In this document: positions 7,499 to 29,395 of the stretch, piece by piece
Layout of the letters: each line of letters starts with the position of its first letter
Numbering within the stretch: the stretch's first letter is position 1
Source: a virus
Lineage: Duplodnaviria; Caudoviricetes
DNA length: 60,356 bases
Virus record (IMG/VR): IMGVR_UViG_3300027593_000003
Location: 1 to 60,356 of that record
Strand: one strand, 5' to 3'
The notes under the pieces: model-generated
What the model was told of the DNA's origin: nothing
What the model saw: the letters and a program-made list of their open reading frames with translations, nothing else
Databases searched by the model: none
Translations under genes and position numbers: made by a program

Positions 7499-7935
7499 TG
7501 GTAGAAACAATTATAGTAACGGTTCCAAATAATGAAGTTATAGTTTCTTCCCCAGGCCCACAAGGCCCAAGAGGAAAAAGCATACTTAATGGAATAGGTA
7601 GTCCCGCAGAAAATTTTGGCCTTGAAGGAGATTTTTACTACGATAAAAGTACAACAAGGTTTTATGGGCCAAAGCCAACAGACCTAACTTGGGCTGGAGC
7701 AACTAATTACCTTCTAAACATGACTTTAGAGTATTCCTGGGAACTTACACAAGTAACTGGGCCAGTATCTGGAGTGTATTCTGTAGAGATTAATCATAAC
7801 CTAGGAATGAAACCCAATGTTACGATAAAATCAAGCGCAGGCGACGTTTTAGAAACAGGAATAGATTATAATAGTAGTAACAAAATAACACTGACAATGG
7901 CTCAACCATTCTCAGGGACAGCGTACCTGTCTTAA
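7498..7935 (+). CDS. fibre-associated structural protein with short collagen-like motif
   Basis: PGPQGPRG, GDFYYD, HNLG; TAATG overlap. Confidence 0.65.
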   Translation: MVETIIVTVPNNEVIVSSPGPQGPRGKSILNGIGSPAENFGLEGDFYYDKSTTRFYGPKPTDLTWAGATNYLLNMTLEYSWELTQVTGPVSGVYSVEINHNLGMKPNVTIKSSAGDVLETGIDYNSSNKITLTMAQPFSGTAYLS

Positions 7936-7947
7936 GGGAGTTAGCAA

Positions 7948-9357: not shown

Positions 9358-9367
9358 GGAGAGCTAA

Positions 9368-9670
9368 GTGTCTGTAAGAAGATTAGTTCCGCTACACGCA
9401 GTAGTGCTTGATTCAGATCCAATCAATTCTAGAATTGGTGACCTGTATTATAATAGCGTTGAAAATGCTTTAAAGTTTTATGACGGTGCTGCCTGGAATT
9501 TAGTTGGCGGCGGAGCAATAACTGGATTACTTGATCACGTACATACATACGACGGAGATGTTTATTCTGTTAGCGCAAACGAAATATCTTCAGATGGATT
9601 AATTGATGGTGGAACTCCTTCAACAGTCTTTGCAGATTTGCCAAAAAATATTGACGGAGGAACACCATAA
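9368..9670 (+). CDS. small fibre adaptor (paralog of 14997..15470 C-half)
   Basis: GDLYYN..ENALKFYDG..W, LLDHVH, IDGG end; TAATG overlap. Confidence 0.7.
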   Translation: MSVRRLVPLHAVVLDSDPINSRIGDLYYNSVENALKFYDGAAWNLVGGGAITGLLDHVHTYDGDVYSVSANEISSDGLIDGGTPSTVFADLPKNIDGGTP

Positions 9671-11469
9671 TGCCTGCTAAAATTAAGATAAGAAGAGGAA
9701 CCTCCAGTCAGTGGGCATCATCTACTAATATTTTAGATCAAGGCGAACTAGGATATGATATATCTACAAAGCTAATTAAGATTGGCGACGGATCATCTTT
9801 ATGGGCTAGCCTACAACCAGTAAATAAATTTGAAATTCAAGAACTTGCACAAGATGCTATATATGAAGCATTAACTAATTTTGTAGCAACTGGACAAAAT
9901 ATAACTGCCACATATAATGATTCAAGCAATACAATGACTTTGGACACAGGCACAAATGTAGTCCTTATTACTAATTTAAATACCGCAATTTCAACTGAAG
10001 TTTCTAATAGAAATACAGCAATTGCAACTGCTAAGTCTGAAGCAATTTCAGCTTCCGCCACAGATGCCACTACAAAGGCTACAGCGGCTCAATCAGCAGC
10101 AGCAACAGATGCAACTACTAAAGTAGCAGCAGAAGCAACCCTTCGGGTATCAGGCGACGCAGCTTCTGTATCTACAGCAGCAGCAGATGCAACTACTAAG
10201 GTGGCAGCAGAAGCAGCCCTTCGAGTATCAGGCGACGCAGCCTCAGTTGCAACCGCAGCCACAGATGCAACTACTAAGGTCGCAGCAGAAGCAGCCCTTC
10301 GAGTATCAGGCGACGCAGCCTCAGTTGCAACCGCAGCAGCAGATGCAACTACAAAAGCAGGTGCTGCATTAACTTCAGCAAATAGCTACACAGATACAGC
10401 CGTCTCATCTTTAGGAAATACTGCAGCAACAACATATGTTCTTCTTTCAGACGTTGGAAATATAGATGGCGTTGCATCGCTAGACGGAACTGGAAAAATC
10501 CCAGACACAGAAATTCCAGCAGGCATTGCAAGAGATACAGAAGTTACAACAGCTATTTCAACAGCTATTAACACTCTTATTAATTCAGCCCCAGGCACAC
10601 TAGACACATTAGGTGAAATTGCTACAGCTATGGCTACTAGTGATTCTGCTGCAGCAGCCTTAGTAACTGCAGTTAATTTAAAGGCCCCTATTGCTTCACC
10701 AACCTTTACTGGTACAGTAAGCGGAATTACAAAAGATATGGTCGGCCTTGCAAATGCAGACAATACAACAGATGCTAATAAGCCAGTTTCAACTGCTACA
10801 CAAACAGCACTAGACTTAAAATTAAATTTGGCAGAACCTTCAGTAGATTATTACGTAAGCAATTCAGGAACTGGCGGATATCTTGTAAATGGAGTCTTGA
10901 ATGGAACAATTAATTTTGTAAAAGGCAAAAAATATAGAATTATTGTAAATGCAGTAGGCCACCCATTTTGGATACAAACATCATATGGAGCATACAACCC
11001 AGCAGATGTTTATTCTACGGGAGTAACAAATGCTGGAACAGATAGTGGATCAATATTAGTAGAACTTCCTTTATCAGCACCAGATGATTTATACTACGCA
11101 TGCCAGTATCACTCTACAATGAAAGGAACAATTAATTCTAAGCCTGACGAGCTTTTAGACTATGCAACCTCTTCAGCAGCAACTGCTTACACTATAACCT
11201 CTGCAAATTCCGCTAAGACAACAGAGTTTACTGCAACAACAGATGTGACAATTACAATACCATCTGACCCATCTAATACAACTTGGCCGATTGGTACTTC
11301 TCTTGAATTAAGACAGATGGGAGTAGGCAGACTTATATTCTCCGCAACATCCCCCGCAACAATTGTTTCAACAGATGGATATTTAAAAACAAGAACACAA
11401 TATTCCTCAGCATTTTTAGAAAAAAGAGCTTCAAACGCATGGATACTAACTGGAGATATTGACGCATAA
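9670..11469 (+). CDS. fibre protein: Mtd-N-like start, Ala-rich coiled coil, cupredoxin-like domain, GDIDA terminal domain
   Basis: IKIRRGT..QW...GELGYD...KIGDG; APGTLDTLGEI; GHPF...CQYHSTM. Confidence 0.8.
   Translation: MPAKIKIRRGTSSQWASSTNILDQGELGYDISTKLIKIGDGSSLWASLQPVNKFEIQELAQDAIYEALTNFVATGQNITATYNDSSNTMTLDTGTNVVLITNLNTAISTEVSNRNTAIATAKSEAISASATDATTKATAAQSAAATDATTKVAAEATLRVSGDAASVSTAAADATTKVAAEAALRVSGDAASVATAATDATTKVAAEAALRVSGDAASVATAAADATTKAGAALTSANSYTDTAVSSLGNTAATTYVLLSDVGNIDGVASLDGTGKIPDTEIPAGIARDTEVTTAISTAINTLINSAPGTLDTLGEIATAMATSDSAAAALVTAVNLKAPIASPTFTGTVSGITKDMVGLANADNTTDANKPVSTATQTALDLKLNLAEPSVDYYVSNSGTGGYLVNGVLNGTINFVKGKKYRIIVNAVGHPFWIQTSYGAYNPADVYSTGVTNAGTDSGSILVELPLSAPDDLYYACQYHSTMKGTINSKPDELLDYATSSAATAYTITSANSAKTTEFTATTDVTITIPSDPSNTTWPIGTSLELRQMGVGRLIFSATSPATIVSTDGYLKTRTQYSSAFLEKRASNAWILTGDIDA
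10105..10352 (+). repeat. three 78-nt (26-aa) tandem repeats
   Basis: TDATTKVAAEAALRVSGDAASVATAA units at 10105, 10183, 10261. Confidence 0.9.
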
Positions 11470-12845
11470 TGTCAAGACCAAGAGCAAGAAGAAGAAAAGT
11501 AGCCGTAGTCTCATCAAGACTAAAAGGATTTTTATCATTTCAAGAACTTTTTCAAAGCGGATTAAGAAACGGCTGGAAAGTTGTAAGATCTGGTTGGTCT
11601 GCGGGATCGGGTGCAGTTTCCGCATCAAACCCAACACAATATCCTTTATTGTCTACAACAATGTCAAAGACAAATGTCACAATAGAAATTACAGAGCCAG
11701 GTATTGGTACAGGCGCAGCACTTTGGGTTACTGACTCAGGTAACTGGTATGGAGTTGTAACATCTCAAGAAGTTTCGTCAGGAACGGGTAATTGCGGCAC
11801 ATACTCTGCAATAAATAATTGTGGATATACAAATCCATGTGTAGCAACAGGCGGATTTTATACTAATAGTGGGTACGAAGATTTTGGATATCAATGTATT
11901 AACACATCAACATACTCATGGAACGGAAACCCTGCAAGTTACGGAAACTATAGTTGTTCTTGCCCAAATGCTAATAACTGTGCATTTGGATATGTTGCTT
12001 CTGGAAACTATTCTCTTTCTTATTGTGCAAATATTTCATATAGCGCAAACTATTGTGGATATTATACTCAAGCACATCAATACTATGATAATTGTAAAAC
12101 TGGAGGAAATTGTGTAGCAACAGGAGGAAACTGTAGAACCTATGGAAACTGTTTAGTTTATGGTAGCTACTATATCTCTTGTTGCAAAGCTTATAATACA
12201 TACAATTCTTGTGCCTATACAAATCCATGCGTAGGTGGATATATTTATTGGACAACTCAAGAGTCACTTGCTCCTTGTTGTGCTCTAGGATACACTGCAG
12301 ATTACGTAGCAAGTAACTGTGCAACTGGAAGCCCATCAACAAATAACGCTTGTGGATACTGTGGCACTATAGAAGCACAACCTGCTGGATCAGTAACAAA
12401 TAATTGTAGTTGCTGCGGCAGAACAGCGCAAGACATTCGTTTAGTCCTTTACCCACAAGACAGCTATAACCCTTGCGGAGCTGGAGGAAACTGCGTTCAA
12501 ACTGGTGGAAATTGCACAAGTTATCAAGACACTTATCCTAGAAAAATTAAAATATTTAAATACGCATCAAACGTATTAACTGAGGTTGCTTCACAAACTT
12601 TAGACTCATTAACTTCTTATCCCGTTATTAGATCTTTAAAGATTATAGTAACTAATGCAGTAAAAGGCGGATCAACTGCTACAATAACAACAAAAACATA
12701 TTCAGATACCTTATTTACAAATCAAATAGGTTCTGATTTTATACACCAGGCAACAGGATTGAAAGTTAATACCAATTACGGTATAATTGCTAATCCAAGC
12801 GCTTACAATCAAAATATATCAGTACAAAAAATACTAATCTCTTAA
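11469..12845 (+). CDS. cysteine-rich virion-associated protein (cargo 1)
   Basis: Basic N-terminus, beta-rich flanks, 28 Cys in 11793-12515 with GGNC/YxNPC motifs. Confidence 0.8.
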   Translation: MSRPRARRRKVAVVSSRLKGFLSFQELFQSGLRNGWKVVRSGWSAGSGAVSASNPTQYPLLSTTMSKTNVTIEITEPGIGTGAALWVTDSGNWYGVVTSQEVSSGTGNCGTYSAINNCGYTNPCVATGGFYTNSGYEDFGYQCINTSTYSWNGNPASYGNYSCSCPNANNCAFGYVASGNYSLSYCANISYSANYCGYYTQAHQYYDNCKTGGNCVATGGNCRTYGNCLVYGSYYISCCKAYNTYNSCAYTNPCVGGYIYWTTQESLAPCCALGYTADYVASNCATGSPSTNNACGYCGTIEAQPAGSVTNNCSCCGRTAQDIRLVLYPQDSYNPCGAGGNCVQTGGNCTSYQDTYPRKIKIFKYASNVLTEVASQTLDSLTSYPVIRSLKIIVTNAVKGGSTATITTKTYSDTLFTNQIGSDFIHQATGLKVNTNYGIIANPSAYNQNISVQKILIS

Positions 12846-12858
12846 AGGGGGGCAAGAA

Positions 12859-13071
12859 ATGACAATAGAAATTCCACAATGGACATTTGTAACTAAAGAA
12901 GAAGAAGCTACAAAAGTTAGATTTGCAATATGTGTAGATGACACAGTTCAGCAAATCATGGAAGTTAATTTAGCACAAGCTGCGCTATGGGTATTAAACC
13001 CAGTAGTAGTACGATGCAACGATTTAGCTACACCAGGAGATTCTCGAGCAGATGCAGTAGCAGGTCTGTAA
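12859..13071 (+). CDS. small hypothetical, possible fibre chaperone (paralog of 13771..14067)
   Basis: FAICVDDTVQQIM vs LALVIDNEVVDIM. Confidence 0.65.
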   Translation: MTIEIPQWTFVTKEEEATKVRFAICVDDTVQQIMEVNLAQAALWVLNPVVVRCNDLATPGDSRADAVAGL

Positions 13072-13770
13072 ATGAAGGTAATAAAGTTTATACCTTGGGT
13101 AGAACACTATCCATTGGTTAAACCTGTCAGGTCACAAATTCCACAATGGTGGAAAAAAGGTGAGACTGAAGTTATTATTAATGGAGAAAAACAGGGTAAC
13201 GGAATGAAATCTTGTATACCCTTTATGGAAATAATGTCAGGCGGATATGAAATATTAACTCCATTTGACATCCATGTCATTAAAGACGAAGATGGCAATA
13301 CTCAAGTCAGATGGCAAGGGCCAGAGGGCTGGGATGATTTTGTTGGCGAAAGAGCAAAAGAGCTGGGTGCGACGATACCTAGACCTGCGGGGCATTTACC
13401 AATGGGTTTTATTTGGTCCTGCAAGTGGTCTTGGAAAACACCAAAAGGATATAGCACATTTGTAACTCATCCATTTAATCGATACGAATTGCCATTTACC
13501 ACTTTAAACGGAATTATAGATAGCGATGGTTTTCACGGAAACGGAAATATACCATTTTTTATTAAAGAAGATTTTTCAGGGACTATTCCAGAAGGAACTC
13601 CTTTTGTACAGATATTCCCATTCAAAAGAGACAAGTGGAAAATGTGGACAGACAACTCTTTTAATGCTAGAATATTAGAAGATCAAAATAAAAATTTACG
13701 AACTGCTGATGAAAATGGACTATACCCTTGGTCTTATAAAAAAAGGTTTTGGAAAAAGAAAGAGTTTTAA
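13072..13770 (+). CDS. DUF6065-related / dUTPase-like fold protein
   Basis: PQWWK, KSCIPF, TPKGYS, GIIDSD, GTPFVQIFPFKR. Confidence 0.7.
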   Translation: MKVIKFIPWVEHYPLVKPVRSQIPQWWKKGETEVIINGEKQGNGMKSCIPFMEIMSGGYEILTPFDIHVIKDEDGNTQVRWQGPEGWDDFVGERAKELGATIPRPAGHLPMGFIWSCKWSWKTPKGYSTFVTHPFNRYELPFTTLNGIIDSDGFHGNGNIPFFIKEDFSGTIPEGTPFVQIFPFKRDKWKMWTDNSFNARILEDQNKNLRTADENGLYPWSYKKRFWKKKEF

Positions 13771-14067
13771 ATGTTTAAAAGAAAAACAATTTATAAAAGA
13801 AGCCCAAAAGCAAATGACTTTAACGCACCCAAAGAATTCCACGAGGGCAATAAAATATTTACCCTAGCCCTAGTTATTGATAATGAAGTTGTTGACATAA
13901 TGAGAACAGAAGAGCGGCTAATGTCTATCTTAACAAGCGAGCCCAAAATCATAGATTTGACAACAAAAGATTATAAAGTCCACGTAGGCTGGACTTACCT
14001 AGAAGAAGAAGGGGAGTTTATATCTAATGAAGTTAAAGAAGAAGATAGTTCAGGCGCAGACGTCTGA
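13771..14067 (+). CDS. small hypothetical, possible fibre chaperone
   Basis: LALVIDNEVV...VGWTY..GEF. Confidence 0.65.
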   Translation: MFKRKTIYKRSPKANDFNAPKEFHEGNKIFTLALVIDNEVVDIMRTEERLMSILTSEPKIIDLTTKDYKVHVGWTYLEEEGEFISNEVKEEDSSGADV

Positions 14068-14695
14068 TAGAACAGTAGATTTTACACCTCCCGTCCCAGC
14101 AAAAACAGAAATACCAGATTGGTTTAAATCAATCCCATCCTTGGTAGAAGGAGAAATGTCTATCAAGCGTTGTGTTCCAGTTTTAGATGCATTTACGGCG
14201 GGATATATAATTGTTTCTAATGTTGATTTTATGTTTGATGAAGAATCAGGAAGATTTTTAGATAATGCTTCTTACAGTAGCCCAATAAGCCACCACTTGG
14301 ACTTTCAAACTGAAGACATGCAGATAGACAAAAATTTAAACCCTCATCCATTTAAATGGAATAATCAATGGCATCTTAAACTTCCAAAAGGATACAGCCT
14401 ATTAATTACACACCCACTAAATAGAACAGAGCTTCCCTTTCACAGCCTAACTGGAATTGTTGATGCAGATGTTCATCCAGTAGTAATTAACTTCCCGTTT
14501 TTTATGAAAAAAGGTTTTAGCGGATTAATCCCAGCTGGTACACCCCTAGTTCAAATTATTCCAATCAAGAGGGAGCCCTGGAAATTAAAAGTAAATGATC
14601 AAGATACCTATTTTTATAAGGATTTTTGGAAATGGAACTCTCAGCCAGAAGCAACATATAAAAGAAAGTTTTGGCAAAGAAAGGATTACAGCTAA
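14027..14695 (+). CDS. DUF6065-related / dUTPase-like fold protein
   Basis: PDWFK, KRCVPVLDA, PKGYS, GIVDAD, GTPLVQIIPIKR. Confidence 0.7.
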   Translation: MKLKKKIVQAQTSDRTVDFTPPVPAKTEIPDWFKSIPSLVEGEMSIKRCVPVLDAFTAGYIIVSNVDFMFDEESGRFLDNASYSSPISHHLDFQTEDMQIDKNLNPHPFKWNNQWHLKLPKGYSLLITHPLNRTELPFHSLTGIVDADVHPVVINFPFFMKKGFSGLIPAGTPLVQIIPIKREPWKLKVNDQDTYFYKDFWKWNSQPEATYKRKFWQRKDYS

Positions 14696-14931
14696 TGCCT
14701 GATAGTCCAAAAAAAGCAAGACCCTGGGATTTGTTTACTTCAAAGACTAGAGTTCCAATTGAGATTGCCCTTGAAAGATATGAGATTTGCAAAGGTTGTC
14801 CCGAACTTATTCAGACAACTAAGACATGTAAAAAATGCGGATGCTTTATGGCAGCCAAAACAAAACTTCCACATGCTTCCTGCCCACTTGGCAAATGGGA
14901 TGCAATTGAAGTGGCTCCTAAAGAAGAATAA
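14695..14931 (+). CDS. small Cys-rich metal-binding protein (DUF6171-like)
   Basis: CKGC...CKKCGC...CPLGKW; start by TAATG overlap. Confidence 0.7.
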   Translation: MPDSPKKARPWDLFTSKTRVPIEIALERYEICKGCPELIQTTKTCKKCGCFMAAKTKLPHASCPLGKWDAIEVAPKEE

Positions 14932-14996
14932 CACCTTTGCTTAAACGGTGAATTTAATAAATCTTGGTGTATAATTAGGGAAGGAGCGTACAGTAT

Positions 14997-15470
14997 ATGG
15001 CAATAACCTTTCCAGCTAGTCTGGATAATTTCACCAATCCTCAGTCTGTGAGTTCGGTTGCTAACCCTTCACATTCTCAACAGCATTCTGATGCTAATGA
15101 TGCCATAGAAGCTCTTCAAGCTAAAATAGGTGTTAACAATTCAACCGTACCTACAACTATAGATTATAGAGTTAAAACTCTTGAGCTAGGTATTGCAAAA
15201 AGAATTCAAACGCTATCTGCCGCCCCATCTTCTCCAGAAACTGGCGCAGTCTATTTTGATATTTTTGAAAACACGATTAAGGTTTATAATGGAGTAGTAT
15301 GGTACGACGTGGCTGGCCCAAAGTCTATTCTTGAGCACGATCACGAAATCAATGGATTGGTTAATTCTGTAGACTATGGAAACTATGTTAGCGAAGACAA
15401 GATTTTTGCAAACGCTGGCTCAACTTCCTCAGCTTATATAGATAACTATATCGACGGGGGTGGTGCATAA
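14997..15470 (+). CDS. small fibre adaptor
   Basis: FPASLD..., HSDANDAIEALQ, GAVYFD..ENTIKVYNG..W, IDGG end. Confidence 0.7.
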   Translation: MAITFPASLDNFTNPQSVSSVANPSHSQQHSDANDAIEALQAKIGVNNSTVPTTIDYRVKTLELGIAKRIQTLSAAPSSPETGAVYFDIFENTIKVYNGVVWYDVAGPKSILEHDHEINGLVNSVDYGNYVSEDKIFANAGSTSSAYIDNYIDGGGA

Positions 15471-18400
15471 TGGCAATTAGAATTCAATTACGCAGAGATA
15501 CAGCAGCAAATTGGACTTCAGTAAATCCTGTTTTAAAAGCAGGAGAATTTGGTATTGAAACAGATACACTTAAGGTAAAAGTAGGTAACGGTACAAGTAC
15601 ATGGACTCAAATATCCAGCTACCTTAATATTACACCTGCACAGCTAGCAACCACAGTTACATCAGTAAATGCCTATACAGACACAGCCGTAGCATCGCTA
15701 GGTAACACAGCAGCAAACACATATGTTCCACTTTCAGATGTAGGAAATATAGACGGAGTTGCCTCCCTTGACGGAACTGGAAAAATCCCAGACACAGAGA
15801 TCCCAGCAGGAATAACTAGAGATACAGAGCTATCTGCAGCAATTAGCACAGAAGTTACAAACAGAAATTTAGCAATAACAAATGCAATAAGTAATCTTAT
15901 TGATGGTGCCCCAGCAGCTTTAGATACGCTTAATGAACTTGCCGCAGCAATAAATGACGATGCATCTTATGCAGCAACTATAACAACGGCACTTGGTTTA
16001 AAAGCACCTCTAGCTTCACCATCTCTAACTGGAACCCCTCTTGCACCAACAGCAGCAGTAGATACCAATACAACACAGATTGCAACTACAGCATTTGCTA
16101 AAAAAGAAGCAGATGACGCAGAAGCAGCAGCAGCCACAGATGCAACTACTAAGGTCGCAGCAGAAGCAGCCCTTCGAGTATCAGGCGACGCAGCCTCAGT
16201 TGCAACCGCAGCAACAGATGCAACTACTAAGGTTGCAGCAGAAGCAGCCCTTCGAGTATCAGGCGACGCAGCCTCAGTTTCAACCGCAGCCACAGATGCA
16301 ACTACTAAGGTCGCAGCAGAAGCAGCCCTTCGAGTATCAGGCGACGCAGCCTCAGTTGCAACCGCAGCAACAGACGCTACTACTAAAGCTAACGCAGCCC
16401 AAGCAGCAGCAATCGCAGCAGCAGCAACAGACGCTACTACTAAAGCAGATGCCGCTCAAGCAGCAGCAATCGCTGCAGCAGCAACAGCAGCAGGCTCAGC
16501 GCTTACTTCAGCCATCGCAACAGAAGTTACAAATCGAAATACTGCAATTACAAACGCAGTAGACGGACTTGTTGATGGAGCACCAGCACTTCTTAATACG
16601 CTTAATGAACTAGCTGCAGCAATTAATGATGATGCTAATTACACAACAACTATTACAACTGCTTTAGGAACAAAAGCTCCTTTAGATTCACCAGCGCTTA
16701 CTGGTACACCTACAGCACCCACAGCAGGCGCAAATACTAGTACAACACAGATTGCAACTACAGCATTTGCTAAAGCAGAAGCAGACGCAGCAGAGGCAGC
16801 AGCAATCGCAGCAGCAGCAACAGACGCTACTACTAAAGCTAACGCAGCCCAAGCAGCAGCAGCCACAGACGCTACTACTAAAGCTAACGCAGCCCAAGCA
16901 GCAGCAGCCACAGACGCTACTACTAAAGCTAACGCAGCCCAAGCAGCAGCAGCCACAGATGCTACTACTAAAGCTAACGCAGCCCAAGCAGCAGCAGCAA
17001 CAGACGCTACTACTAAAGCTAACGCAGCCCAAGCAGCAGCAGCAACAGACGCTACTACTAAAGCAGATGCCGCTCAAGCAGCAGCAATCGCTGCAGCAGC
17101 AACAGCAGCAGGCTCAGCGCTTACTTCAGCCATCGCAACAGAAGTTACAAATCGAAACACTGCAATTTCAGGAGCAGTAAGCACATTAGTAGATGGTGCA
17201 CCAGATCTTCTTAATACATTAAATGAAATAGCGGCAGCAATTAACGATGATCAAAACTATACAACAACTATTACCACAGCTCTGGGAACAAAGGCACCAC
17301 TAGCCTCCCCAGCGTTTACTGGAACAGTTACTGGTATTGATAAAACAATGGTTGGCCTTGCTAACGTTGATAATACAACAGATGCCCTTAAACCAATATC
17401 AACAGCTACACAGACTGCTCTTAATCTTAAAGCGCCACTAGCGTCACCAACGTTTACAGGAACAGTGGTTCTTCCAGATAATACAATTACTAACGCAATG
17501 CTGGCTGGATCAATTGCAAATGCTAAACTTGCAAACTCTTCCATTACAATTAATGGAAACGCAGTATCTTTAGGTGGAACTGTTACTTTAGCTACTGGAC
17601 AAGCGGCAACTGAAAGCACACTTGGAACAGTATATGGAAAAGTAACACTAGCTGGAGTTGATAATACATCTCTAGGAAGTCTAACCTTTCAAAATACAGA
17701 GACTGGTATTTTAAACACCGCTATTGGTAATGAATCCTTAAGAACTCTATCTAGTGGAGAAAGAAATACAGTAGTAGGTTATCAGGCGGGTACACTTATA
17801 GAGACTGGATCAGATAACACCCTACTAGGAACAGGTGCAGGAAATACTTTGCTTAGCGGAGTCAATAATATTATTATTGGTTCTAACGCCCAAGCAGCTA
17901 CAAACAGCACAAGCAATGAAATCATTATCGGAAATGGTTCAATTACAACATTTAAGATTCCAGGAATTGGCCTTGTAGCATCAGCAACAGACTATATTAT
18001 TACTGCAACAGCTGCACAAAATTTAACCAACAAAACAATAACATCACCAACAATTATTAGTCCGATATTTCAAGGTCCAATATCGGTCTTTTCTCCAACA
18101 GATGATAGCCACGCAATAAACAGAGGCTATTTAGTTGCAGAGTTAGCAGATGCCGTCGGAAGCGATATAATTCCTTTAGACAGCCTATCTCAATTATTTG
18201 ACGGATATACTTCAAGATTCCGTTTAAAGTTTAATGGAGCAACCTTTGATCCAACAAATCCATATAAGCTTTTGATAACAATTAATGGTATAATTCAAAT
18301 ATTGGGAAACCAAGATCAACACTGGCTCAGCGCACTACCTTCTGAGGGATACTTTGTAGATAATGATGGATATATACAGTTCGGGGAACCAATCCCAGCT

Positions 18401-18502: not shown

Positions 18503-18506
18503 GAAA

Positions 18507-21521: not shown

Positions 21522-21533
21522 GAATACAAAACA

Positions 21534-22034
21534 ATGTCTATTACTAAAGGAAAATTTCCTTACGAAACAGATTTGCAGGTTAAGTCATTATCAGTTTCTG
21601 ATAACTGCGGTCTTTCTGGAATAACAACATTTTCTGGAGTAGTAAAGTTAAGTGGAACACTTGACAGCACATTAGGTAACATTCAGTTTATAGATGGGGT
21701 ACAGTCAAAACAAGGTATCCCATCTATAACACCTATATCTACTAAATTCTTTAATTACACACTAAGTAATTTAAATGAAAGAGATACTATTATTGATATG
21801 AGAATGACTGTTGCAAATACAGTAACAATTCCAGCGGACACCATTCTCAATTTTCCTGTAGGAACCACTATCGATATTTTGCAAACAGGAGCAGGACAAA
21901 CTACAATTCAGGCAGGCGCAGGAGTTGTATTAAACTTTACTCCAGGACAAAAATTAAGATTCCAATGGTCAATTGCAACAATATTAAAACGAGATGCCAA
22001 CACTTGGCTTTTATTTGGAGATTTAACAGCGTAA
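21534..22034 (+). CDS. adaptor protein homologous to C-terminus of 9670..11469
   Basis: VTIP...FPVGT.I.I.Q.GAGQ...LR.QWS.AT..KR..NTWLLFGDLTA. Confidence 0.75.
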   Translation: MSITKGKFPYETDLQVKSLSVSDNCGLSGITTFSGVVKLSGTLDSTLGNIQFIDGVQSKQGIPSITPISTKFFNYTLSNLNERDTIIDMRMTVANTVTIPADTILNFPVGTTIDILQTGAGQTTIQAGAGVVLNFTPGQKLRFQWSIATILKRDANTWLLFGDLTA

Positions 22035-22050
22035 GAAGGGTATTTAAAAA

Positions 22051-23715
22051 ATGGGAAAAAAGACGGGTAGAAAAGCGCAACTCTCTGGAGATTTTGAATA
22101 TCCAGTACCACCAATTAATGTAGTTGCTACAGATGTAGGAACAGATAGACCATATAACAATGGTGCTATAAGTATTACTTTTGAATACCCATCAGGTCAA
22201 TTACCTATTATAAACTATACCGCAAAGTTTACTCCAAATACAGGATCAACCACTTACACAGATTTTGCAGCAACATCTCCAATTGTTATTAGTGGAATAC
22301 CTTCAGGACTGACTGGCTTTGTAACAGTAAATGCAACAAATGTAAATGGAACTTCTCAGGAGTCCACTGCAACCGCCCCACTTTTAGTTACAACAGTTCC
22401 ACAGTCACCAAGAACAGTAACAGCAACATCTACAACTACTGGACCAGGACATAGCACAGATGGAAATCAGACTACTACTCCAGGACAGCGTGGACAGGAT
22501 ATTGTTTCTTGGGGACACCCAGCAGATGGAGGTAAGGCTATATCAAAGTATGTTATTACTTCTTCAGATACAGCAGTACAGCCAGGCGGCTTAGCATCTC
22601 CATACGAAGTTAATTATCCAGCAACATCTTTGGGAATTAGAGAAACAATGGCAAGCGCCCAAATTTATACAGTAAAAGCAGTAAATGCAAATGGAACATC
22701 TCTTGGTCAAGCCACTGGTGAAGTTACAACATTCTTCTCACCTCCAGCATTCTTTTCACCACCTAACTTTTTTGCACCACCTAACTTTTTTGCACCACCT
22801 AATTTTTTTGCGCCACCTAACTTCTTTGCGCCACCTCAGTTCTTTGCACCACCAAACTTCTTCGTTCCACCACTATTCTTTGCACCACCTCAGTTTTTTG
22901 CCCCACCGCAGTTCTTTGCGCCACCGCAGTTCTTTGCGCCACCTAACTTTTTTACCCCTCCAGGGTTCTTTGCACCACCAAGATTCTTTGCCCCTCCAGC
23001 ATTCTTCTCGCCTCCAGGGTTCTTTTCACCACCAAGATTCTTCTCGCCTCCAGGGTTCTTTGCACCACCAAGATTCTTTGCCCCTCCAGGGTTCTTTGGC
23101 CCACCAAGATTCTTTGGTCCTCCAGGGTTTTGTATTCCAGCAGATACTGAAGTGCTAACTACAGACGGTTATAAGAAAGCAAAAGATATTAAAGTTGATG
23201 ATTATCTTTTAACTGCTTCTTTTGATAACCTACCTAAGCATGACTCTAATTGTTCTCAAGGCCACATAACAACAGAATGTATTATCAAGGTTGCTGGATG
23301 GAGAGACCTATCTATGGTTAACCCATCTACCCTAGAGTCTAAGGTTACAAATATTTTTAAACAAACAAAATCCTCATTTATGAGAATTAACAACAATCCT
23401 AAACACGACCTATCTTTAGTAGAGCAGCCTCTAGTAAAAAGAGGCAGCGAATACATGTTCCCAGAAGTAACTGATTTAGAGGTTGGCGACGAGATTTATA
23501 ATTACGATGATCCCTCTAGTCCAATTGTTATAGATTCACTAAATATAATTGAAGAAGATCTAGATGTCTTCCTATTCTATAGAGAGCCTTGGGGACTTCT
23601 TGTAGCTGGATCAATGCTTGCCTACAATGGATGCGAAACATCTACTGAATTTATTCAAGTTGAAGATGATCATCATGATCAAGAAGAGGCAAATACAGAA
23701 TTTCAGGATATATAA
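22051..23715 (+). CDS. FN3-FN3-(FFxPPx)22-Hint domain protein (cargo 2)
   Basis: Two FN3-like units (P..P..V.A...W...Y...A.N.NG.S), 22 hexapeptide repeats, then CIPADTEVLTTDGYKKAKDIKVDD...LVAGSMLAYN. Confidence 0.85.
   Translation: MGKKTGRKAQLSGDFEYPVPPINVVATDVGTDRPYNNGAISITFEYPSGQLPIINYTAKFTPNTGSTTYTDFAATSPIVISGIPSGLTGFVTVNATNVNGTSQESTATAPLLVTTVPQSPRTVTATSTTTGPGHSTDGNQTTTPGQRGQDIVSWGHPADGGKAISKYVITSSDTAVQPGGLASPYEVNYPATSLGIRETMASAQIYTVKAVNANGTSLGQATGEVTTFFSPPAFFSPPNFFAPPNFFAPPNFFAPPNFFAPPQFFAPPNFFVPPLFFAPPQFFAPPQFFAPPQFFAPPNFFTPPGFFAPPRFFAPPAFFSPPGFFSPPRFFSPPGFFAPPRFFAPPGFFGPPRFFGPPGFCIPADTEVLTTDGYKKAKDIKVDDYLLTASFDNLPKHDSNCSQGHITTECIIKVAGWRDLSMVNPSTLESKVTNIFKQTKSSFMRINNNPKHDLSLVEQPLVKRGSEYMFPEVTDLEVGDEIYNYDDPSSPIVIDSLNIIEEDLDVFLFYREPWGLLVAGSMLAYNGCETSTEFIQVEDDHHDQEEANTEFQDI
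22732..23127 (+). repeat. 22 x 18-nt coding repeat (FFxPPx)
   Basis: Counted directly, 396 nt. Confidence 0.95.
23131..23628 (+). other. Hint (intein-like) autoprocessing domain
   Basis: Block A Cys1 motif, LEVGD motif, terminal Asn; non-canonical block B and +1 Gly. Confidence 0.75.
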
Positions 23716-23718
23716 TCC

Positions 23719-23747
23719 TTGACTATATTGCATAAAAATGCTATTCT
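23719..23747 (+). promoter_or_regulatory. leaderless sigma70-type promoter of oxygenase operon
   Basis: TTGACT-17 bp-TATTCT with extended TG; ATG 6 nt downstream. Confidence 0.7.
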
Positions 23748-23753
23748 TTAATA

Positions 23754-24377
23754 ATGATATACAACAAAAAACAACTGTATCCTGGAATATGGGTATATCC
23801 TAATTCTTTTCCAAAAGAACTTGATCTAATTAATAGGATTGAGGAATGCGTATCTAGCAAGCAAGCTGACTGGAATGGCGCAAGTGTTTGCTTAGAAGAA
23901 ATAGATTTAACTTATAGAGATGCCTGGGATTTTAAGTTATCGGCTTTAGGCAAATCCCACCCACTTTATAAAGATATTTATGACTGTCAAAAAGATGCAG
24001 TTCAAGATTTTTGCAATATGTATTCAATTAAAATGGATTTCTGGGAATGGACAAATATTGTTAAGTATTACCCAAATCAATTTTTTCAAGAACATGCAGA
24101 TGACGGTTGGTCATATAAATGCGCTGTCTCTCTAGTTGGATATCCAAATGATGGATATACTGGGGGAGGGCTATATTTCCCTAAATTTAATTTACATATA
24201 ACCCCAGAACTAGGAGACCTTGTTATATTTCCATCATCCTTTATATATTCTCACGTAGCACTGCCAGTTGAAACTGGTGTTAAATATTCTTTTGTTACCA
24301 TGCTAGACTACAACGACGACGCCCATACTGAAGAATATGATAGAATGATAGATAACAAACACAAGGGGAAAAAATAA
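23754..24377 (+). CDS. 2OG-Fe(II) oxygenase, P4H-like
   Basis: HAD...GYTGGGLYFP...HVALPVETGVKY. Confidence 0.9.
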   Translation: MIYNKKQLYPGIWVYPNSFPKELDLINRIEECVSSKQADWNGASVCLEEIDLTYRDAWDFKLSALGKSHPLYKDIYDCQKDAVQDFCNMYSIKMDFWEWTNIVKYYPNQFFQEHADDGWSYKCAVSLVGYPNDGYTGGGLYFPKFNLHITPELGDLVIFPSSFIYSHVALPVETGVKYSFVTMLDYNDDAHTEEYDRMIDNKHKGKK

Positions 24378-24378
24378 T

Positions 24379-25119
24379 ATGCTTCCAAATGGAGAAACGA
24401 TCTACCCAGGAATTATTGTATACAGAGACGTTTTTAAAAAAGAATACAATCTGGCAGAAAGATTAGAAAAGGTTTTAGAAAAACAGGAAAACAAGAAGCA
24501 CTGGAATTTAGCTCAAACAGGTTTTGATACACTAAATACAGACTACAGGGATGCTTGGGATTTTAAGATTAAAGAAAACGATGGAGGATCCTTAATGTAT
24601 GGAAATGGTAACCACGTTCAAGAAGAAAATCTTACGGAAGATGAAATAGAGCTAAGACAAATATGGAGAGACTCAAAAGGAGTCCAGCTTAGCGCTGTAG
24701 CAGATTATATGAATATGTTCCAGCTACCTCCATTAAATTACTGGGAATCTTTTAACTTTATTAAGTATGCAAAAAATCAACATTTTAATGTGCACTCAGA
24801 TCACGGGTACTCGTATGTATGTGTGCTTTCATCAGTAGGATATATTAATGACGATTATGAAGGCGGAGAGTTATTTTTTGATAAATTAGGTCTTAAGATT
24901 AAGCCAAAAGCTGGAGACTTATACCTATTCCCATCTTCTTATATCTATTCTCACGCAGCAATGCCAGTCCGATCTGGAACTAAATATGCTATTGTAACTA
25001 TGCTAGATTATCAAGAAGCTCCACATACACCTCTCTATAGAGAAATAGAAGCAAGCTATGAATATAATCATTTCACTGAAGGGAAAAAATTTATCCCAGC
25101 AGAACAAAGGGAGAGCTAA
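24379..25119 (+). CDS. 2OG-Fe(II) oxygenase, P4H-like
   Basis: HSD...YINDDYEGGEL...HAAMPVRSGTKY. Confidence 0.9.
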   Translation: MLPNGETIYPGIIVYRDVFKKEYNLAERLEKVLEKQENKKHWNLAQTGFDTLNTDYRDAWDFKIKENDGGSLMYGNGNHVQEENLTEDEIELRQIWRDSKGVQLSAVADYMNMFQLPPLNYWESFNFIKYAKNQHFNVHSDHGYSYVCVLSSVGYINDDYEGGELFFDKLGLKIKPKAGDLYLFPSSYIYSHAAMPVRSGTKYAIVTMLDYQEAPHTPLYREIEASYEYNHFTEGKKFIPAEQRES

Positions 25120-25833
25120 TTGATTAGAATAACAGCATATGATAATTTTCAAGACACTGCTAACATTGAGCCTCTTTCTGCAAAAAGAGACTGGATGGAT
25201 GAAACAGAGCACAATCATGCATACAGATGCTTTCCATTAACGCTAGCAAATCAATTAGGCTGGGGTATATCATTTCCAGAAGATATAACCTTTATGTGGG
25301 ATGGAGTAACAAGTACTTATCCACATAACGTTCAGGTTTTGCAGGGACAAAAGTACTGCGAGACTGGTAGAGGTCACTCAACAATTAACTTTAAAACAAA
25401 TTTAACTTTTGAAACAGACAGTAACTATACTTTGCTATCTTTTCCAGTTCCAAATATGTTCGTTGATGGAGCTCAGGCCGTAACAAGTTTATTAACAACA
25501 TCCTTTTTTGGCAGCCCATTGCCAGTTGCATGGAAGATTACAAAGCCCTACGTTCCAATTACAATCAAAGCTGGACAGCCAGTAATTGCAATTTTACCAA
25601 TATCTTTAACAGAGCTAAACAATTCTACTCTTGAGGTAAAGGATATAAGGCACATGCCACAGCCACACCTTGAGAATATCCCAACTTATGAAGGAGCAGT
25701 TGCTGCAGCTAAAGAGGCGGCAGAAAAACAAATTTGGACGGATTACTATAGGGATGCTACAGATTATCTAGGTAATAAGCTTGGGTCCCACGAAGTAAAA
25801 TCAATTAAGCTGAAGGTTAGTAAGCACAAATGA
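25120..25833 (+). CDS. DUF6065 family protein
   Basis: RDWMDET...AYRCFPLTLANQLGW...WDG; TTG start with SD. Confidence 0.7.
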   Translation: MIRITAYDNFQDTANIEPLSAKRDWMDETEHNHAYRCFPLTLANQLGWGISFPEDITFMWDGVTSTYPHNVQVLQGQKYCETGRGHSTINFKTNLTFETDSNYTLLSFPVPNMFVDGAQAVTSLLTTSFFGSPLPVAWKITKPYVPITIKAGQPVIAILPISLTELNNSTLEVKDIRHMPQPHLENIPTYEGAVAAAKEAAEKQIWTDYYRDATDYLGNKLGSHEVKSIKLKVSKHK

Positions 25834-26540
25834 AAATTGTTTTTAATTCAAATAGGCACTATAACAACGACGAACTTGCACCAAGTCCTTCAAAAAATAC
25901 AATGCCAGCATGGTTTAAAAATGCCAGCAAATATTGGAAAGATTTTGAGGGAAACGATGTAGTCGGGCCACCAGATAATAAAAAGGGCCCAGGATTTAAA
26001 TCTTGTCCAGCTCTTCATGATATTTTTACAACAGGATATACATTTACAACACCATGCGACATTAATGTTTTTATGCAAAGCGGATATCCATTAATAAAAG
26101 CAGAGCCAGGATATGATGATTTTGTTGCAATACGTTCGCATATGGGAGAGTTCTATTATCCTGAAGGGTATTATAAATTTGTTTACCATTGGTATCCAAA
26201 CTGGGGGTTTACGCTTCCAGATGGATACAGCGCTTTAGTAGTTCAGCCAATCAATAACTTCGGCCTGCCTTTTTTAACAGTAGGCGGTATAATTGATAGT
26301 GACAAGTACGGAGCACCAGGACTGATGCCCTTTTTTATTAGAGACGGATTTACAGGAATAATTCCAAAAGGAACCCCTTACGCACAAATTATTCCGATCA
26401 AAAGAGAAGAATGGGTATCAGAGTTTAATTTGTATACCTATCAAGAAATGCAAAAAAAGCATGACGATCACGTAGCTATTTATAGAGCAGACACTGGCGT
26501 TTATAAAAAAAGAACTTGGGTACCTAAAAAATATGAATAG
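25830..26540 (+). CDS. DUF6065-related / dUTPase-like fold protein
   Basis: PAWFK, KSCPALHD, PDGYS, GIIDSD, GTPYAQIIPIKR. Confidence 0.7.
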   Translation: MKIVFNSNRHYNNDELAPSPSKNTMPAWFKNASKYWKDFEGNDVVGPPDNKKGPGFKSCPALHDIFTTGYTFTTPCDINVFMQSGYPLIKAEPGYDDFVAIRSHMGEFYYPEGYYKFVYHWYPNWGFTLPDGYSALVVQPINNFGLPFLTVGGIIDSDKYGAPGLMPFFIRDGFTGIIPKGTPYAQIIPIKREEWVSEFNLYTYQEMQKKHDDHVAIYRADTGVYKKRTWVPKKYE

Positions 26541-26553
26541 GAAAAGAAACTAA

Positions 26554-27237
26554 ATGGATAACACGGTAGAGAACTCATCGGATATTAGAAAGCACAGAAC
26601 ATCTATTACTCCTTCAGGATACTTTGGCAACGGCCCAGAAAACATTGTTGAAATTGAAAATTTGTTAACTGAAGAAGAAAATGAATACCTTCTTAATTTT
26701 ATTAAGGGTAATCAAGTATGGGATCAAGGGCAAGACGTACGTAATGAAAATGGAACTATAATTTATCAACACAATGTATGGGCAGATCGTGTTGCAACAA
26801 AAAAATCCCTAGATGAATCAGACCCTAATGTTTCGGTAATGCTAAATACAATAATTCAAAGACTAAGACTTATTATTGAAAAGCACTTTAATGTAGAGGT
26901 AAACCCAACAGGGCCTTGTTTAGTAAGATGGCCAGTTGGTTCTATGCAGTGGCCACATGCAGACAAAGAGTTGCACGAAGGTCCAGACAAGGGCACCGCA
27001 AACAATTTCCCGTGGTACGACATTGGAACAGTAATTTATTTAAATGAAGACTATGAGGGTGGAAGACTTCATTTTCCAAAACAAGAAATTGCCTTTAAGC
27101 CAAAAGCTAGAGCTGCATATTTTTTTCCAGGAGATTTAAACTATATACACGGAGTAGACGTAATTACACAAGGCACCAGATACACCTCACCATGGTTCTG
27201 GACTATAACTAAATTAGGAGAAAAAACAAATGGCTGA
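26554..27237 (+). CDS. 2OG-Fe(II) oxygenase
   Basis: HAD...YLNEDYEGG...HGVDVITQGTRY. Confidence 0.9.
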   Translation: MDNTVENSSDIRKHRTSITPSGYFGNGPENIVEIENLLTEEENEYLLNFIKGNQVWDQGQDVRNENGTIIYQHNVWADRVATKKSLDESDPNVSVMLNTIIQRLRLIIEKHFNVEVNPTGPCLVRWPVGSMQWPHADKELHEGPDKGTANNFPWYDIGTVIYLNEDYEGGRLHFPKQEIAFKPKARAAYFFPGDLNYIHGVDVITQGTRYTSPWFWTITKLGEKTNG

Positions 27238-28090
27238 TTTCACATCAAAAACACTCTATCCTAGAATTGAAATCTACAAGGGCTTGCTCCCAGATCATAA
27301 AGAAATTTTTGATGTTGTAAAGTCAACCGAGAGCATTGAAAATGAGTCGGACGAGCACTACTTTGTTCCGTGGACAAAATGGAGCAAGTTTGGAACTTAC
27401 TCATCAACAAAGTTTAAGGGTGCAGTAGAAAGCCTACTTGGTAAAAATAAAACCTTCGACAAAGAGTACTGGGCTGCCGAAAAGGTTTGGGACGCATATA
27501 ATGTTGCCATTGATGACTATATTAAAAAGTATAATGTAGAGCTTCCCAAAGATTGTCAGCTAGGATCATCCTCATTCTGTAAATATTTTACTAACGTTGA
27601 TTCTTTAAAAAATAATTTAACCATGCAGTATCATACTGATTTTAAGCAAACAGATAAGGATGCTCCAGGAGATAAGTTTTATATTACATGCACAGTTTAC
27701 ATTAACGATGATTACGAAGGTGGAGAAATAGAGTTTTATGTAAACGGAGAATTTGTTCCTGCATATAAGCCAGAGGCTGGAGATATTATGGTTTTCCCTT
27801 CTGGCGAAGGATACTATCATGGAGTTAAGACTGCAACAAAAGGCAATAAGTATTTAATAAGAAACTTTATGTTTTATCCATATGCAGGGTCAGAAGAGTG
27901 GCTTGCAAACCAATTGAAGTATGGTGCAACAAAATGGGCAGAGATGGAAAAAAGAAGAATAAGCCTTGATGTATACGGAGGCAACTTGGTATTTGAAAAC
28001 GGAAAAGAAAAGGTTCCAACTGAAAAAGAAATACAAGACCACATAGACTATTTGGATAGTTTAGAAGATAAAGATAAGACGGTGTGCTAA
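27230..28090 (+). CDS. 2OG-Fe(II) oxygenase
   Basis: HTD...YINDDYEGGEI...HGVKTATKGNKY. Confidence 0.9.
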   Translation: MADFTSKTLYPRIEIYKGLLPDHKEIFDVVKSTESIENESDEHYFVPWTKWSKFGTYSSTKFKGAVESLLGKNKTFDKEYWAAEKVWDAYNVAIDDYIKKYNVELPKDCQLGSSSFCKYFTNVDSLKNNLTMQYHTDFKQTDKDAPGDKFYITCTVYINDDYEGGEIEFYVNGEFVPAYKPEAGDIMVFPSGEGYYHGVKTATKGNKYLIRNFMFYPYAGSEEWLANQLKYGATKWAEMEKRRISLDVYGGNLVFENGKEKVPTEKEIQDHIDYLDSLEDKDKTVC

Positions 28091-28800
28091 TGGAAATTAT
28101 ATCCCTTAAAGATGATGTTTTTGTTGTTGATAATTTAATTACAGAAGAAGAATGTCAAAAAATAATTGCTTATTTTGATGCAATTACAGATGCAGGACAT
28201 TTAAAGTGGAATCAAATATCTTTTTATGGTTCTTTGGCAATGGGCTACTGGCCATGGGACGAAAACCTTTTAGTGTTTGGATTGCCTAAAGATTACTTTT
28301 CTATTTTAAAAGAAAAAGTAAAAAAGGCAGGAGAGATGTGTTTTGATAGAGAGCTATCAGAGGTTAGCTACCATGCACAAAAATGGGTAGTTGGCGCATT
28401 CGCTGGATTTCATTCAGACAATACTCATGAAGATGGTTCCCCCTCTGCATTCTATAAAAGCAAGTACGCTGGGTTTCTTTACTTAAATGATAATTTTGAT
28501 GGAGGAGTTTTAAACTTCAAACATCATGATATTGCAATAAAGCCAAAGCCTGGAAGATTAGCTTTCTTTAAAGGTGGGCACGGTAATGAGCACGAAGTTA
28601 CTATGGTTCAAAAGGCAGAAAGATATACAGTCGGATCTTTTTGGGATAATGCCGACGCTGTTTACACGCCAGAACAAATAGCTGAATGGGAAGCTGAGCT
28701 TAAAGAGACAAGAGCGGAACAAGAAAAAACTTACGAAGAATGGAACGAGCTTAAGAAAAAAGGAACTCCTCCAACACATAAGGGCAAATACGATGCATAA
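28090..28800 (+). CDS. 2OG-Fe(II) oxygenase
   Basis: HSD...YLNDNFDGG...HEVTMVQKAERY; start by TAATG overlap. Confidence 0.9.
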   Translation: MEIISLKDDVFVVDNLITEEECQKIIAYFDAITDAGHLKWNQISFYGSLAMGYWPWDENLLVFGLPKDYFSILKEKVKKAGEMCFDRELSEVSYHAQKWVVGAFAGFHSDNTHEDGSPSAFYKSKYAGFLYLNDNFDGGVLNFKHHDIAIKPKPGRLAFFKGGHGNEHEVTMVQKAERYTVGSFWDNADAVYTPEQIAEWEAELKETRAEQEKTYEEWNELKKKGTPPTHKGKYDA

Positions 28801-29395
28801 AGAAATTATTAACAAGGATATACATTACTACACTGAGGTTTTTGATGATACAGAATCCATGATAAAAGAAATTGAATGGATGGACCAATTTCAAGATGTT
28901 GGGTCTCAAATAACTAAATGGGAGCCATGGCTTTCTTCTTGCAAAAGTGTGCAGTACGGTTATCAAAAAACAATAAATTATAAAAATGTTTTAAACAATA
29001 ACCCTAGAGACAGACATAACTCTAAAATTGCCAGTATAATCCATTATAGAGCAATTCAAATAGGAGAAGAATATGCTTTGTCTCACGGCATAGATCTCGG
29101 CGATCTTCCAACACATTGTAAAATATATAAGTATGACAACTTAACAGAAATGGGTCCTCACACAGATTACGATCCAGACTATAGCCCAAAAGATTTAATA
29201 GGCACAGTCTCAATTGTTTTTTATATAAATGATGACTACTTGGGTGGAGATCTAAATTTTCCAAATGACGATATATCTGTAAAGCCAAAGGCAAGCAGCG
29301 CATTAGTGTTTAAATCACACGGAGTTTTACATGAGCCAAAGCCAACAACAGAAGGCACGAAATATATGGTTGCAATATTTTTCTTTAAAAAGTAA
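28793..29395 (+). CDS. 2OG-Fe(II) oxygenase
   Basis: HTD...YINDDYLGG...HEPKPTTEGTKY. Confidence 0.9.
   Translation: MHKEIINKDIHYYTEVFDDTESMIKEIEWMDQFQDVGSQITKWEPWLSSCKSVQYGYQKTINYKNVLNNNPRDRHNSKIASIIHYRAIQIGEEYALSHGIDLGDLPTHCKIYKYDNLTEMGPHTDYDPDYSPKDLIGTVSIVFYINDDYLGGDLNFPNDDISVKPKASSALVFKSHGVLHEPKPTTEGTKYMVAIFFFKK

Follow-up and report, generated by a model that had tools for sequence, protein, structure and literature searches.

The stretch of DNA analysed here (the window) is a whole viral contig of IMG/VR, record IMGVR_UViG_3300027593_000003, 60,356 bases long and with an estimated completeness of 56%. Between its ribonucleotide reductase gene (4833–6767) and its portal gene (31598–33181) lies a fibre region, all on the plus strand, in which two gene cassettes follow one another, cassette 1 at 9368–14931 and cassette 2 at 14997–29395. 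Each begins with a small gene and a fibre gene, and each carries one copy of a domain, here called the socket, which ends its protein and is followed by a gene whose product starts with a basic peptide. Our subject is the relation of the two cassettes and that of the socket to the protein encoded after it, the partner.

Cassette 1 opens with a gene for 100 residues (9368–9670), which ends ..NIDGGTP and has weak PHROG matches to tail fibres. Its stop codon overlaps the start codon of the fibre gene as TAATG (9668–9672). The fibre itself (599 residues, 9670–11469) starts with Mtd_N (PF18454; 47 bits, E = 2.4e-12, residues 5–43, cut-off 26.3), continues in Ala-rich repeats and ends in the socket-like domain, which occupies the last ~95 residues (about 11182–11466); the C-terminal part matches phrog_8780 at 3.6e-15. 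The following gene overlaps the fibre gene by one base, again as TAATG, and a GGAG lies 14 nucleotides (nt) ahead of its ATG, within the Gly-Asp codons with which the socket ends. This gene (11469–12845) encodes a partner of 458 residues with a basic N-terminal peptide (net charge + 6 over the first 15 residues) and a Cys-rich middle, where 28 Cys fall in residues 109–349 (11793–12515; 241 residues) between flanks free of Cys. Three relatives, 63–70% identical, have the same junction, and the basic peptide is common to all. No Pfam, PHROG or NCBIfam family matched the Cys-rich partner. The idea that it is a member, with an insert, of a ~ 185-residue family found downstream of other sockets was dropped when profile comparison gave a probability of 0.1.

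Cassette 2 opens in the same way, with a gene for 157 residues (14997–15470, ending ..YIDGGGA) that is homologous to the small gene of cassette 1 (33% identity over 88 residues, E = 9e-8) and runs through a TAATG overlap (15468–15472) into a fibre gene (15470–18502). The sequence-only reading from which this analysis started had described both small genes as ending in IDGG and as coupled by TAATG to an Mtd_N fibre; the coupling and the Mtd_N starts hold, and the IDGG lies near the end of the proteins, not at it. The second fibre, of 1010 residues, has its Mtd_N match at residues 5–43 (61.3 bits, E = 7.9e-17, with the same cut-off) and repeats in common with the first (repeat families D1–D5), and is without a terminal socket. 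It is followed by a virion structural protein of 1004 residues (18507–21521; phrog_5838 at E = 0) that has no counterpart in cassette 1. Over its full length this protein is 44–47% identical to the “virion structural protein” of the cyanomyoviruses S-RSM4, Syn1 and S-PM2; in T4-like cyanophages the homologue comes after two giant fibre-like genes, and the genome here is siphovirus-like.

The socket of cassette 2 stands in a free-standing protein of 166 residues (21534–22034), where model, fold and homologues assign it to residues 68–166. A gap of 16 nt, with no overlap, separates this gene from that of the partner (22051–23715), a protein of 554 residues with a basic N-terminal peptide (net charge + 3 over the first 15 residues), two FN3-like domains, an array of FFxPPx units and a Hint-like end. 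The array consists of 22 uninterrupted [FY]FxPPx units in residues 228–359 (22732–23127), and the FN3-like domains are proposed from a homologue at locus L019 (Pfam fn3, 7e-21). The Hint-like assignment is weak. TIGR01445 gave E = 0.066 and 14.2 bits, under its cut-off of 24.5, no Pfam family matched this end and a PDB profile search gave chance-level matches only; Atlas feature matches to Hint-type clusters reached 0.91–0.92, and a Cys after the repeat and the motif ..YNGC near the end are invariant in 8/8 relatives. The partners of the two cassettes have no detectable similarity to each other. In both cassettes, then, the shared domain directly precedes a gene with a basic N-terminus and a low-complexity part, as had been proposed, with the qualification that in cassette 2 there is the 16-nt gap and the extra 1004-residue gene stands before the domain.

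The two sockets are the only copies in the contig and are 34% identical over 94 residues (E = 3.7e-10), which agrees with the claim that both cassettes present the same terminal domain. In a quick tree of socket domains with Shimodaira–Hasegawa approximate likelihood ratio test (SH-aLRT) support, they are not sisters, the cassette 1 type forming a separate long branch (SH-aLRT 100). Because of this, the cassettes are, as far as their sequences tell, old homologues and not a recent tandem duplication; of the paralogous tandem cassettes originally described, the homology stands and the recent duplication does not. The Ala-rich repeats common to the fibre genes include a 291-nt stretch of 78-nt units with 90% identity (10091–10381 and 16122–16412), and such likeness between otherwise diverged fibres suggests a recent exchange between the cassettes.

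The 166-residue protein was modelled with AlphaFold from an alignment of 56 sequences, giving a predicted local distance difference test (pLDDT) score of about 94 over residues 68–166. Among solved structures the socket model matches best the C-terminal knob that the capsid spike of Pa223 carries (Z = 14.1, root-mean-square deviation 1.9 over 97 residues), followed by a baseplate protein of Klebsiella phage KP1 (Z = 9.9) and by residues 79–182 of the CBA120 tailspike TSP4 (Z = 8.9). CpaA (6o38) and StcE (4dny) also match, and the Foldseek list includes T4 gp9 (1qex) and, weakly, T4 gp10 (E = 0.07 and 0.75). The same set is named in PMC8825819 (Table 2), where TSP4 residues 79–182 are the XD1 module and its structural neighbours are gp9, gp10, CpaA and StcE. 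These matches place the socket among the modules of branched phage fibres; docking is not implied by the fold.

Viral contigs were searched with the 166-residue protein, which gave 72 loci, of which 71 had complete open reading frames (ORFs) and, after de-duplication, 54 distinct pairs of socket and next gene. In 70/71 of the complete ORFs at most one residue comes after the domain, and many of its carriers are only ~ 210 residues long (median 211). The two genes of a pair overlap by one base in 38/54 and by four bases in 4/54, together 42/54. The next gene opens with a conserved N-terminal peptide (M-P-I-L/I-G-x-x-x-S and close variants) in 41/54 pairs, so that the tabulation of genes downstream of the GD(L/I)xA domain, which the sequence-only reading had put forward as a check, is non-random. 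The peptide is found on at least seven unrelated bodies, namely Gly_rich_2 (270–850 residues), fn3, the ~ 185-residue family, a LamG-like body and three singletons, and the downstream proteins span 180–850 residues. The 13 exceptions include the seven close relatives of the window.

Within the peptide, four codons are in use for the invariant Gly and four for the invariant Ser, the latter both TCN and AGT, and codon identity is 0.55 at position 3 as against 0.76 at positions 1 and 2. Since the third positions vary, selection acts on the protein sequence of the peptide and not on a DNA site. At loci L019 and L032 an FN3 body of the cassette 2 partner type carries the common hydrophobic peptide, and the sockets fall in the clade that is paired with that peptide; the peptide thus follows the socket, not the body. 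The peptide of the cassette 2 partner itself belongs to a second, basic class (M-S/G-K-x-x-G-R-K...D-F-x-x-P), which is kept in 33 distinct Phe/Pro-repeat proteins, always after a socket at a distance of 8–59 nt.

The domain is present in cultured phages too: in 47 Gordonia phages and a few others it ends proteins annotated as “minor tail proteins”. One of them is Gordonia phage Kroos, where the socket ends gp40 and gp41 overlaps it by 4 nt, both being annotated as minor tail proteins; gp41 starts with a variant of the common peptide, which leads into a run of Arg. In Actinomycetia phage DSL-LC01, a cultured lake actinophage (L168, 3252–5282), a socket of 50% identity ends a collagen-repeat protein, and the next gene, 54 nt on, encodes a beta-propeller-like protein, at whose N-terminus the common peptide is missing.

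Behind the partners, as had been noticed from the sequence, both cassettes end in genes of the DUF6065 type with further genes that differ between them; the latter include six 2OG-FeII_Oxy_3 genes in one and a single six-Cys protein in the other. In cassette 1 the partner is followed by a gene for 70 residues (12859–13071), kept in the cassette 1 relatives L077–L079 at 79–83% identity, a DUF6065-like paralogue of 232 residues (13072–13770), a gene for 98 residues (13771–14067; 73–80% identity in the same three loci), a second DUF6065-like paralogue of 222 residues (14027–14695) and the small six-Cys protein (14671–14931; phrog_13558 at 6.8e-17). With Cys at residues 40, 43, 53, 56, 58 and 71, the last is DUF6171-like, its score against Pfam DUF6171 (PF19668) being 24.8 bits (E = 2.9e-5), below the cut-off of 27 for membership. 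It is listed from a TTG at 14671; the alternative ATG at 14695 would overlap the preceding stop by one base, a junction resembling the other coupled junctions of the region. Just upstream of cassette 2 in locus L010 (about 1719–2184), a close relative of the window, there is a six-Cys gene, 59% identical, together with a homologue of the small gene, and these copies may be a remnant of cassette 1.

In cassette 2 the partner is followed by two genes for prolyl 4-hydroxylase (P4H)-like 2-oxoglutarate (2OG)-Fe(II) oxygenases (23754–25119; Pfam PF13640 at 33.5 and 46.4 bits), a DUF6065 protein of 237 residues (25120–25833; 117.8 bits, 6.9e-34), a DUF6065-like paralogue of 236 residues (25830–26540) and four more 2OG-Fe(II) oxygenase genes (26554–29395; PF13640 at 26.1, 38.2, 40.8 and 36.5 bits). 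Five of the six oxygenases pass the 27-bit cut-off of 2OG-FeII_Oxy_3 and the gene at 26554–27237 is just under it. The nearest solved relative of 24379–25119 is a Bacillus prolyl 4-hydroxylase (E = 1.5e-5); 27230–28090 had no PDB match.

The genes of the DUF6065 type form two kinds. Only 25120–25833 passes the Pfam cut-off (PF19541, 26.6 bits); the other three fall short of it, 13072–13770 at 14.8 bits, 14027–14695 at 16.9 bits and 25830–26540 with no match, and are mutual paralogues (E = 1e-29 to 3e-36). The link between the kinds comes from phrog_7084, which in a PHROG scan of two of the four genes was matched by 13072–13770 (1e-32) and 25120–25833 (2.6e-5), from a BLASTP match at E = 0.06 and from one alignment. 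The DUF6065 model (pLDDT 90.9) has the trimeric dUTPase fold, matching 13 chains with Z between 8.4 and 10.7 and a Foldseek probability of 1.00; it differs from the trimeric dUTPases in its low identity to them (7–13%) and in an extra helical C-terminal part. No Pfam dUTPase family was matched by these genes at E = 0.1. By eye, the three DUF6065-like paralogues have strings like dUTPase motif III (G-I/V-I/V-D-S/A-D) and motif IV (G-T-P-x-V-Q-I), which are not clear in the true DUF6065 protein. Relatives of the paralogues occur in 49 haloarchaeal virus records at 27–32% identity over the full length, and in Halorubrum phage HF2 (L086, 6908–7792) a DUF6065-like gene stands alone between the ribonucleotide reductase gene and the end of the baseplate and fibre genes. 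A tblastn search of cultured phages with DUF6065 (25120–25830) gave no match. The literature that was searched, which left most subscription journals outside its scope, had no mention of “DUF6065” and no paper in which P4H-like genes of phages are connected with a fibre protein.

The cassettes occur in different combinations in related genomes. The complete relative G001, of 109 kb, has cassette 2 and no gene of cassette 1, and loci L078 and L079 have all eight genes of cassette 1 in collinear order, while L077 begins inside the fibre gene, so that only the seven genes from the fibre onward are visible and the small gene lies outside. The block from the 166-residue gene to the last oxygenase (21534–29395) is collinear in 10/10 close relatives. 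G006, 91–96% identical to the window in its portal, protease and capsid genes, has cassette 1 and the 1004-residue gene; it lacks this block, in whose place it has other genes. By these comparisons each cassette is gained or lost as a unit.

A second survey started from DUF6065 and took in 80 loci (48–98% identity) out of more than 573 matches. Genes for 2OG oxygenases are present in 80/80 of them, and a socket in 53/53 of those whose sequence extends 3 kb or more upstream. The ORF directly after the socket has 3–28 aromatic-Pro units in all 56/56 socket-bearing loci (33/33 distinct proteins), with or without the Hint-like end, whereas an oxygenase or a true DUF6065 gene is found in 0/62 socket loci with other partners. 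This direct test of the next ORF was used because the counts of FN3-like partners obtained by tblastn shifted with the low-complexity filter (61/80 as against fewer). The two counts support the view that, for the Phe/Pro-repeat partner, the accessory genes are matched to the partner. Many of these loci carry the socket as a fusion at the end of a fibre of 750–1100 residues, and in L145 it sits on an Mtd_N fibre preceded by a small gene, the layout of the front of cassette 1. In L015, L017 and L018 there are DUF6065-like matches, unplaced among the forward-strand ORFs examined. The partner in L150 (299 residues, with an aromatic-Pro repeat) has, in place of the Hint-like end, a short Cys-rich tail with GNC/NNC-type motifs that recalls the Cys-rich partner of cassette 1.

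We give an even chance to an arrangement of two old homologous fibre modules in which the socket docks swappable tip proteins, each with accessory genes of its own. Each module is made up of a small fibre-type protein, an Mtd_N fibre and the ~ 95-residue beta-sandwich socket, which in cassette 1 forms the end of the fibre and in cassette 2 is a separate protein encoded after the extra virion protein. The gene that directly follows would encode a distal tip protein, and what the sequence-only reading called cargo is better read as such a distal fibre or tip protein. We infer that the short N-terminal peptide of the tip plugs into the socket, which would let a single kind of fibre end bear different tips; synthesis of the cassette 1 pair is coupled at translation through the overlapping stop and start codons and the GGAG. 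The Phe/Pro-repeat tip is inherited with the six P4H-like oxygenases, the DUF6065 protein and the DUF6065-like protein, its repeat being the likeliest substrate of the oxygenases, and the Cys-rich tip with two DUF6065-like genes, two small genes and the six-Cys protein. Among the accessory genes it is for the oxygenases only that a plausible protein substrate can be suggested. The modular display platform proposed earlier is partly supported, by the swapped bodies behind a conserved peptide and by the fold of branched-fibre junctions, and contact between adaptor and partner remains a conjecture; of the proposal that cargoes travel with their own processing genes, the co-inheritance holds, while the word maturation is unproven for the DUF6065 genes because of the dUTPase fold and the setting of the gene in HF2.

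Several observations weigh against docking. The peptides of the window are both basic variants that depart from the common hydrophobic motif, that of cassette 2 being of a different class and lying behind a 16-nt gap, and that of cassette 1 resembling the motif only weakly, by eye and in an alignment for which MAFFT had to insert 7 residues. Socket clade and peptide class agree closely (5 changes as against 35 in shuffles), but both also track phage relatedness and the agreement is not independent; likewise the negative correlation between the net charge of the socket and that of the peptide (Spearman − 0.55, 55 pairs) comes from about three lineages. A complex prediction of three copies of the cassette 1 socket (105 residues) with residues 1–60 of the Cys-rich partner, with a score of 0.07 and a mark of 0.32, is neither for nor against binding. 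In its modelled fold, moreover, the socket matches the XD1/gp9 type and a distal knob, and not the docking modules XD2 and XD3. According to PMC8825819 it is XD2 and XD3 that dock partners, XD1 being a spacer whose function is not fully understood. This would suit a terminal domain that is itself a receptor-binding knob, the genes behind it encoding separate fibre proteins or assembly helpers that are adjacent by inherited order, the more so as its best structural match is a distal C-terminal knob that has no known partner, and as XD1-type modules are not docking modules in CBA120. Fibre chaperones, too, are typically encoded directly 3′ of fibre genes. Against a knob, one N-terminal peptide is under protein-level selection across unrelated downstream bodies and, in L019 and L032, tracks the socket clade and not the body; downstream proteins of such varied length, with FN3, Gly-rich and LamG-like parts, are unlike small chaperones; and the many short socket carriers look like adaptors. 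We consider the knob rather unlikely. The junction of socket end and next-gene start could instead be kept for translational coupling and as a site of homologous crossover that swaps tip genes, with protein contact unnecessary, and the prevalence of one- and four-base overlaps, the GGAG within the terminal codons and the clear exchange of bodies at this boundary are what such a role would leave. The DNA itself is not conserved, however, as the third codon positions and the two kinds of Ser codon show, and the basic-class partners retain their peptide despite gaps of 8–59 nt; this explanation seems to us quite improbable.

The accessory genes are open to a reading of their own, in which the oxygenase and DUF6065 blocks are nucleotide- or DNA-modifying or metabolic islands, inserted beside the fibre genes and not acting on the partners. 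DUF6065 has, in its model, the fold of a nucleotide enzyme, the strings resembling dUTPase motifs III and IV in its paralogues (by eye) point the same way, and a haloarchaeal-virus homologue lies beside ribonucleotide reductase and DNA methyltransferase genes, all of which weighs against a role on tip proteins. Phage 2OG oxygenases are likewise viewed as metabolic or DNA-repair genes in PMC9146016. An island does not lead one to expect the strict linkage to aromatic-Pro partners, nor the loss of partner and block together in G006, and the nearest solved relative of one of the oxygenases is a prolyl 4-hydroxylase. The linkage has to be read with the reservation that the Phe/Pro loci may all go back to a single ancestral arrangement in one broad group of phages. 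On balance we think islands unlikely, and we keep to sockets that would carry exchangeable tips with matched accessory genes.

Taken further, and as a tentative suggestion that we hold possible but doubtful, there would be a plug-and-socket code across aquatic and soil phages with at least three classes of peptide (hydrophobic, basic FN3-type and basic Cys-rich-type), and with every exotic tip would come a chemistry kit of its own. Oxygenases and their dUTPase-fold companions would tailor aromatic-Pro arrays, dUTPase-fold and Cys-cluster proteins would serve a 28-Cys knot, and the many orphan 2OG oxygenases of phages would be modifiers of structural proteins and not metabolic genes. If the socket takes N-terminal plugs, sequence would be enough to recognise the architecture of fibres and the exchange of tips in many uncultured phages and in cultured actinophages like Kroos, and host range could be re-engineered through peptide swaps, a practice already in use with Klebsiella phages. 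The strict association of Phe/Pro-repeat tips with P4H-like oxygenases and DUF6065 offers a testable protein substrate for phage oxygenases that have long been unexplained, and virion tips would, if this is right, be tailored after translation. The Cys-rich cassette would be a second set of tip and helpers on the same platform in one genome, a natural comparison for how helpers are matched to tips.

The remainder of the window fits a large phage that looks siphovirus-like, with a genome of roughly 110 kb. Its head gene set comprises the portal, a head protease, an HK97-type capsid protein and a head-tail adaptor; genes for 757 and 573 residues match a minor-tail-protein PHROG, and an ORF of 2280 residues (40462–47304) is assigned as tape-measure-like by its position only. 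Ahead of cassette 1, at 7151–9357, are three more fibre-type genes, one with a weak LtfC-like match (E = 1e-3); a 469-residue protein in this interval has an N-terminal motif that recurs in the two small genes with which the cassettes open (40% over 50 residues, E = 2e-8). A megablast search of cultured phages with the whole region gave no match, and an NCBIfam scan of nine proteins gave no useful family assignment. A scan for promoters and terminators over 9200–29190 gave 63 and 17, as against 57.6 and 14.6 in shuffles, which leaves separate transcription units unsupported.

Known systems resemble the parts of this one to different degrees. The closest solved fold, the knob of the Pa223 capsid spike gp52 (PDB 9ny6), is likewise C-terminal on a trimeric fibre-like protein, but it is only 13% identical to the socket, belongs to the capsid and is not known to have a partner protein; the authors who described that spike propose a role in host adsorption. 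T4 gp9, like the XD1 modules of T4 gp10 and CBA120 TSP4, belongs to the same fold set as the socket model, XD1 being internal to its proteins as a spacer whereas the socket is terminal. On the side of the accessory genes, the prolyl 4-hydroxylase of Bacillus anthracis (PDB 3itq/5hv0) is of the same 2OG-FeII_Oxy_3 family and has a Pro-rich repeat protein encoded nearby. The P4H of chlorovirus PBCV-1 is another prolyl 4-hydroxylase that acts on repeat proteins. The cassette differs in having six diverged paralogues with a DUF6065 and a DUF6065-like protein; as candidate substrate there is a protein of the fibre region with its array of aromatic-Pro hexapeptides, and the activity is predicted only.

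The nearest parallel to the arrangement as a whole is that of receptor-binding systems built from a branching domain and a docking peptide, which were modelled (PMC6872550) and validated by engineering (PMC13352976). As in gp66–gp63.1 of E. coli phage G7C, CBA120 TSP1–4, the K1-5 gp37 adaptor and the Klebsiella KP32-type RBP1/RBP2 pairs, a carrier or adaptor offers a small beta-sandwich domain, and the next receptor-binding gene, or here the next gene, has a short group-specific peptide before an exchangeable body. The differences are that the branching domain follows the N-terminal anchor, whereas the socket is at the extreme C-terminus; that those systems use XD2 and XD3, whereas the socket matches XD1/gp9-type folds; and that here a one-base overlap couples most of the gene pairs, depolymerases play no part and docking is proposed from the genes alone. 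By this analogy the system fits the branching-domain and docking-peptide kind, but with a different domain.

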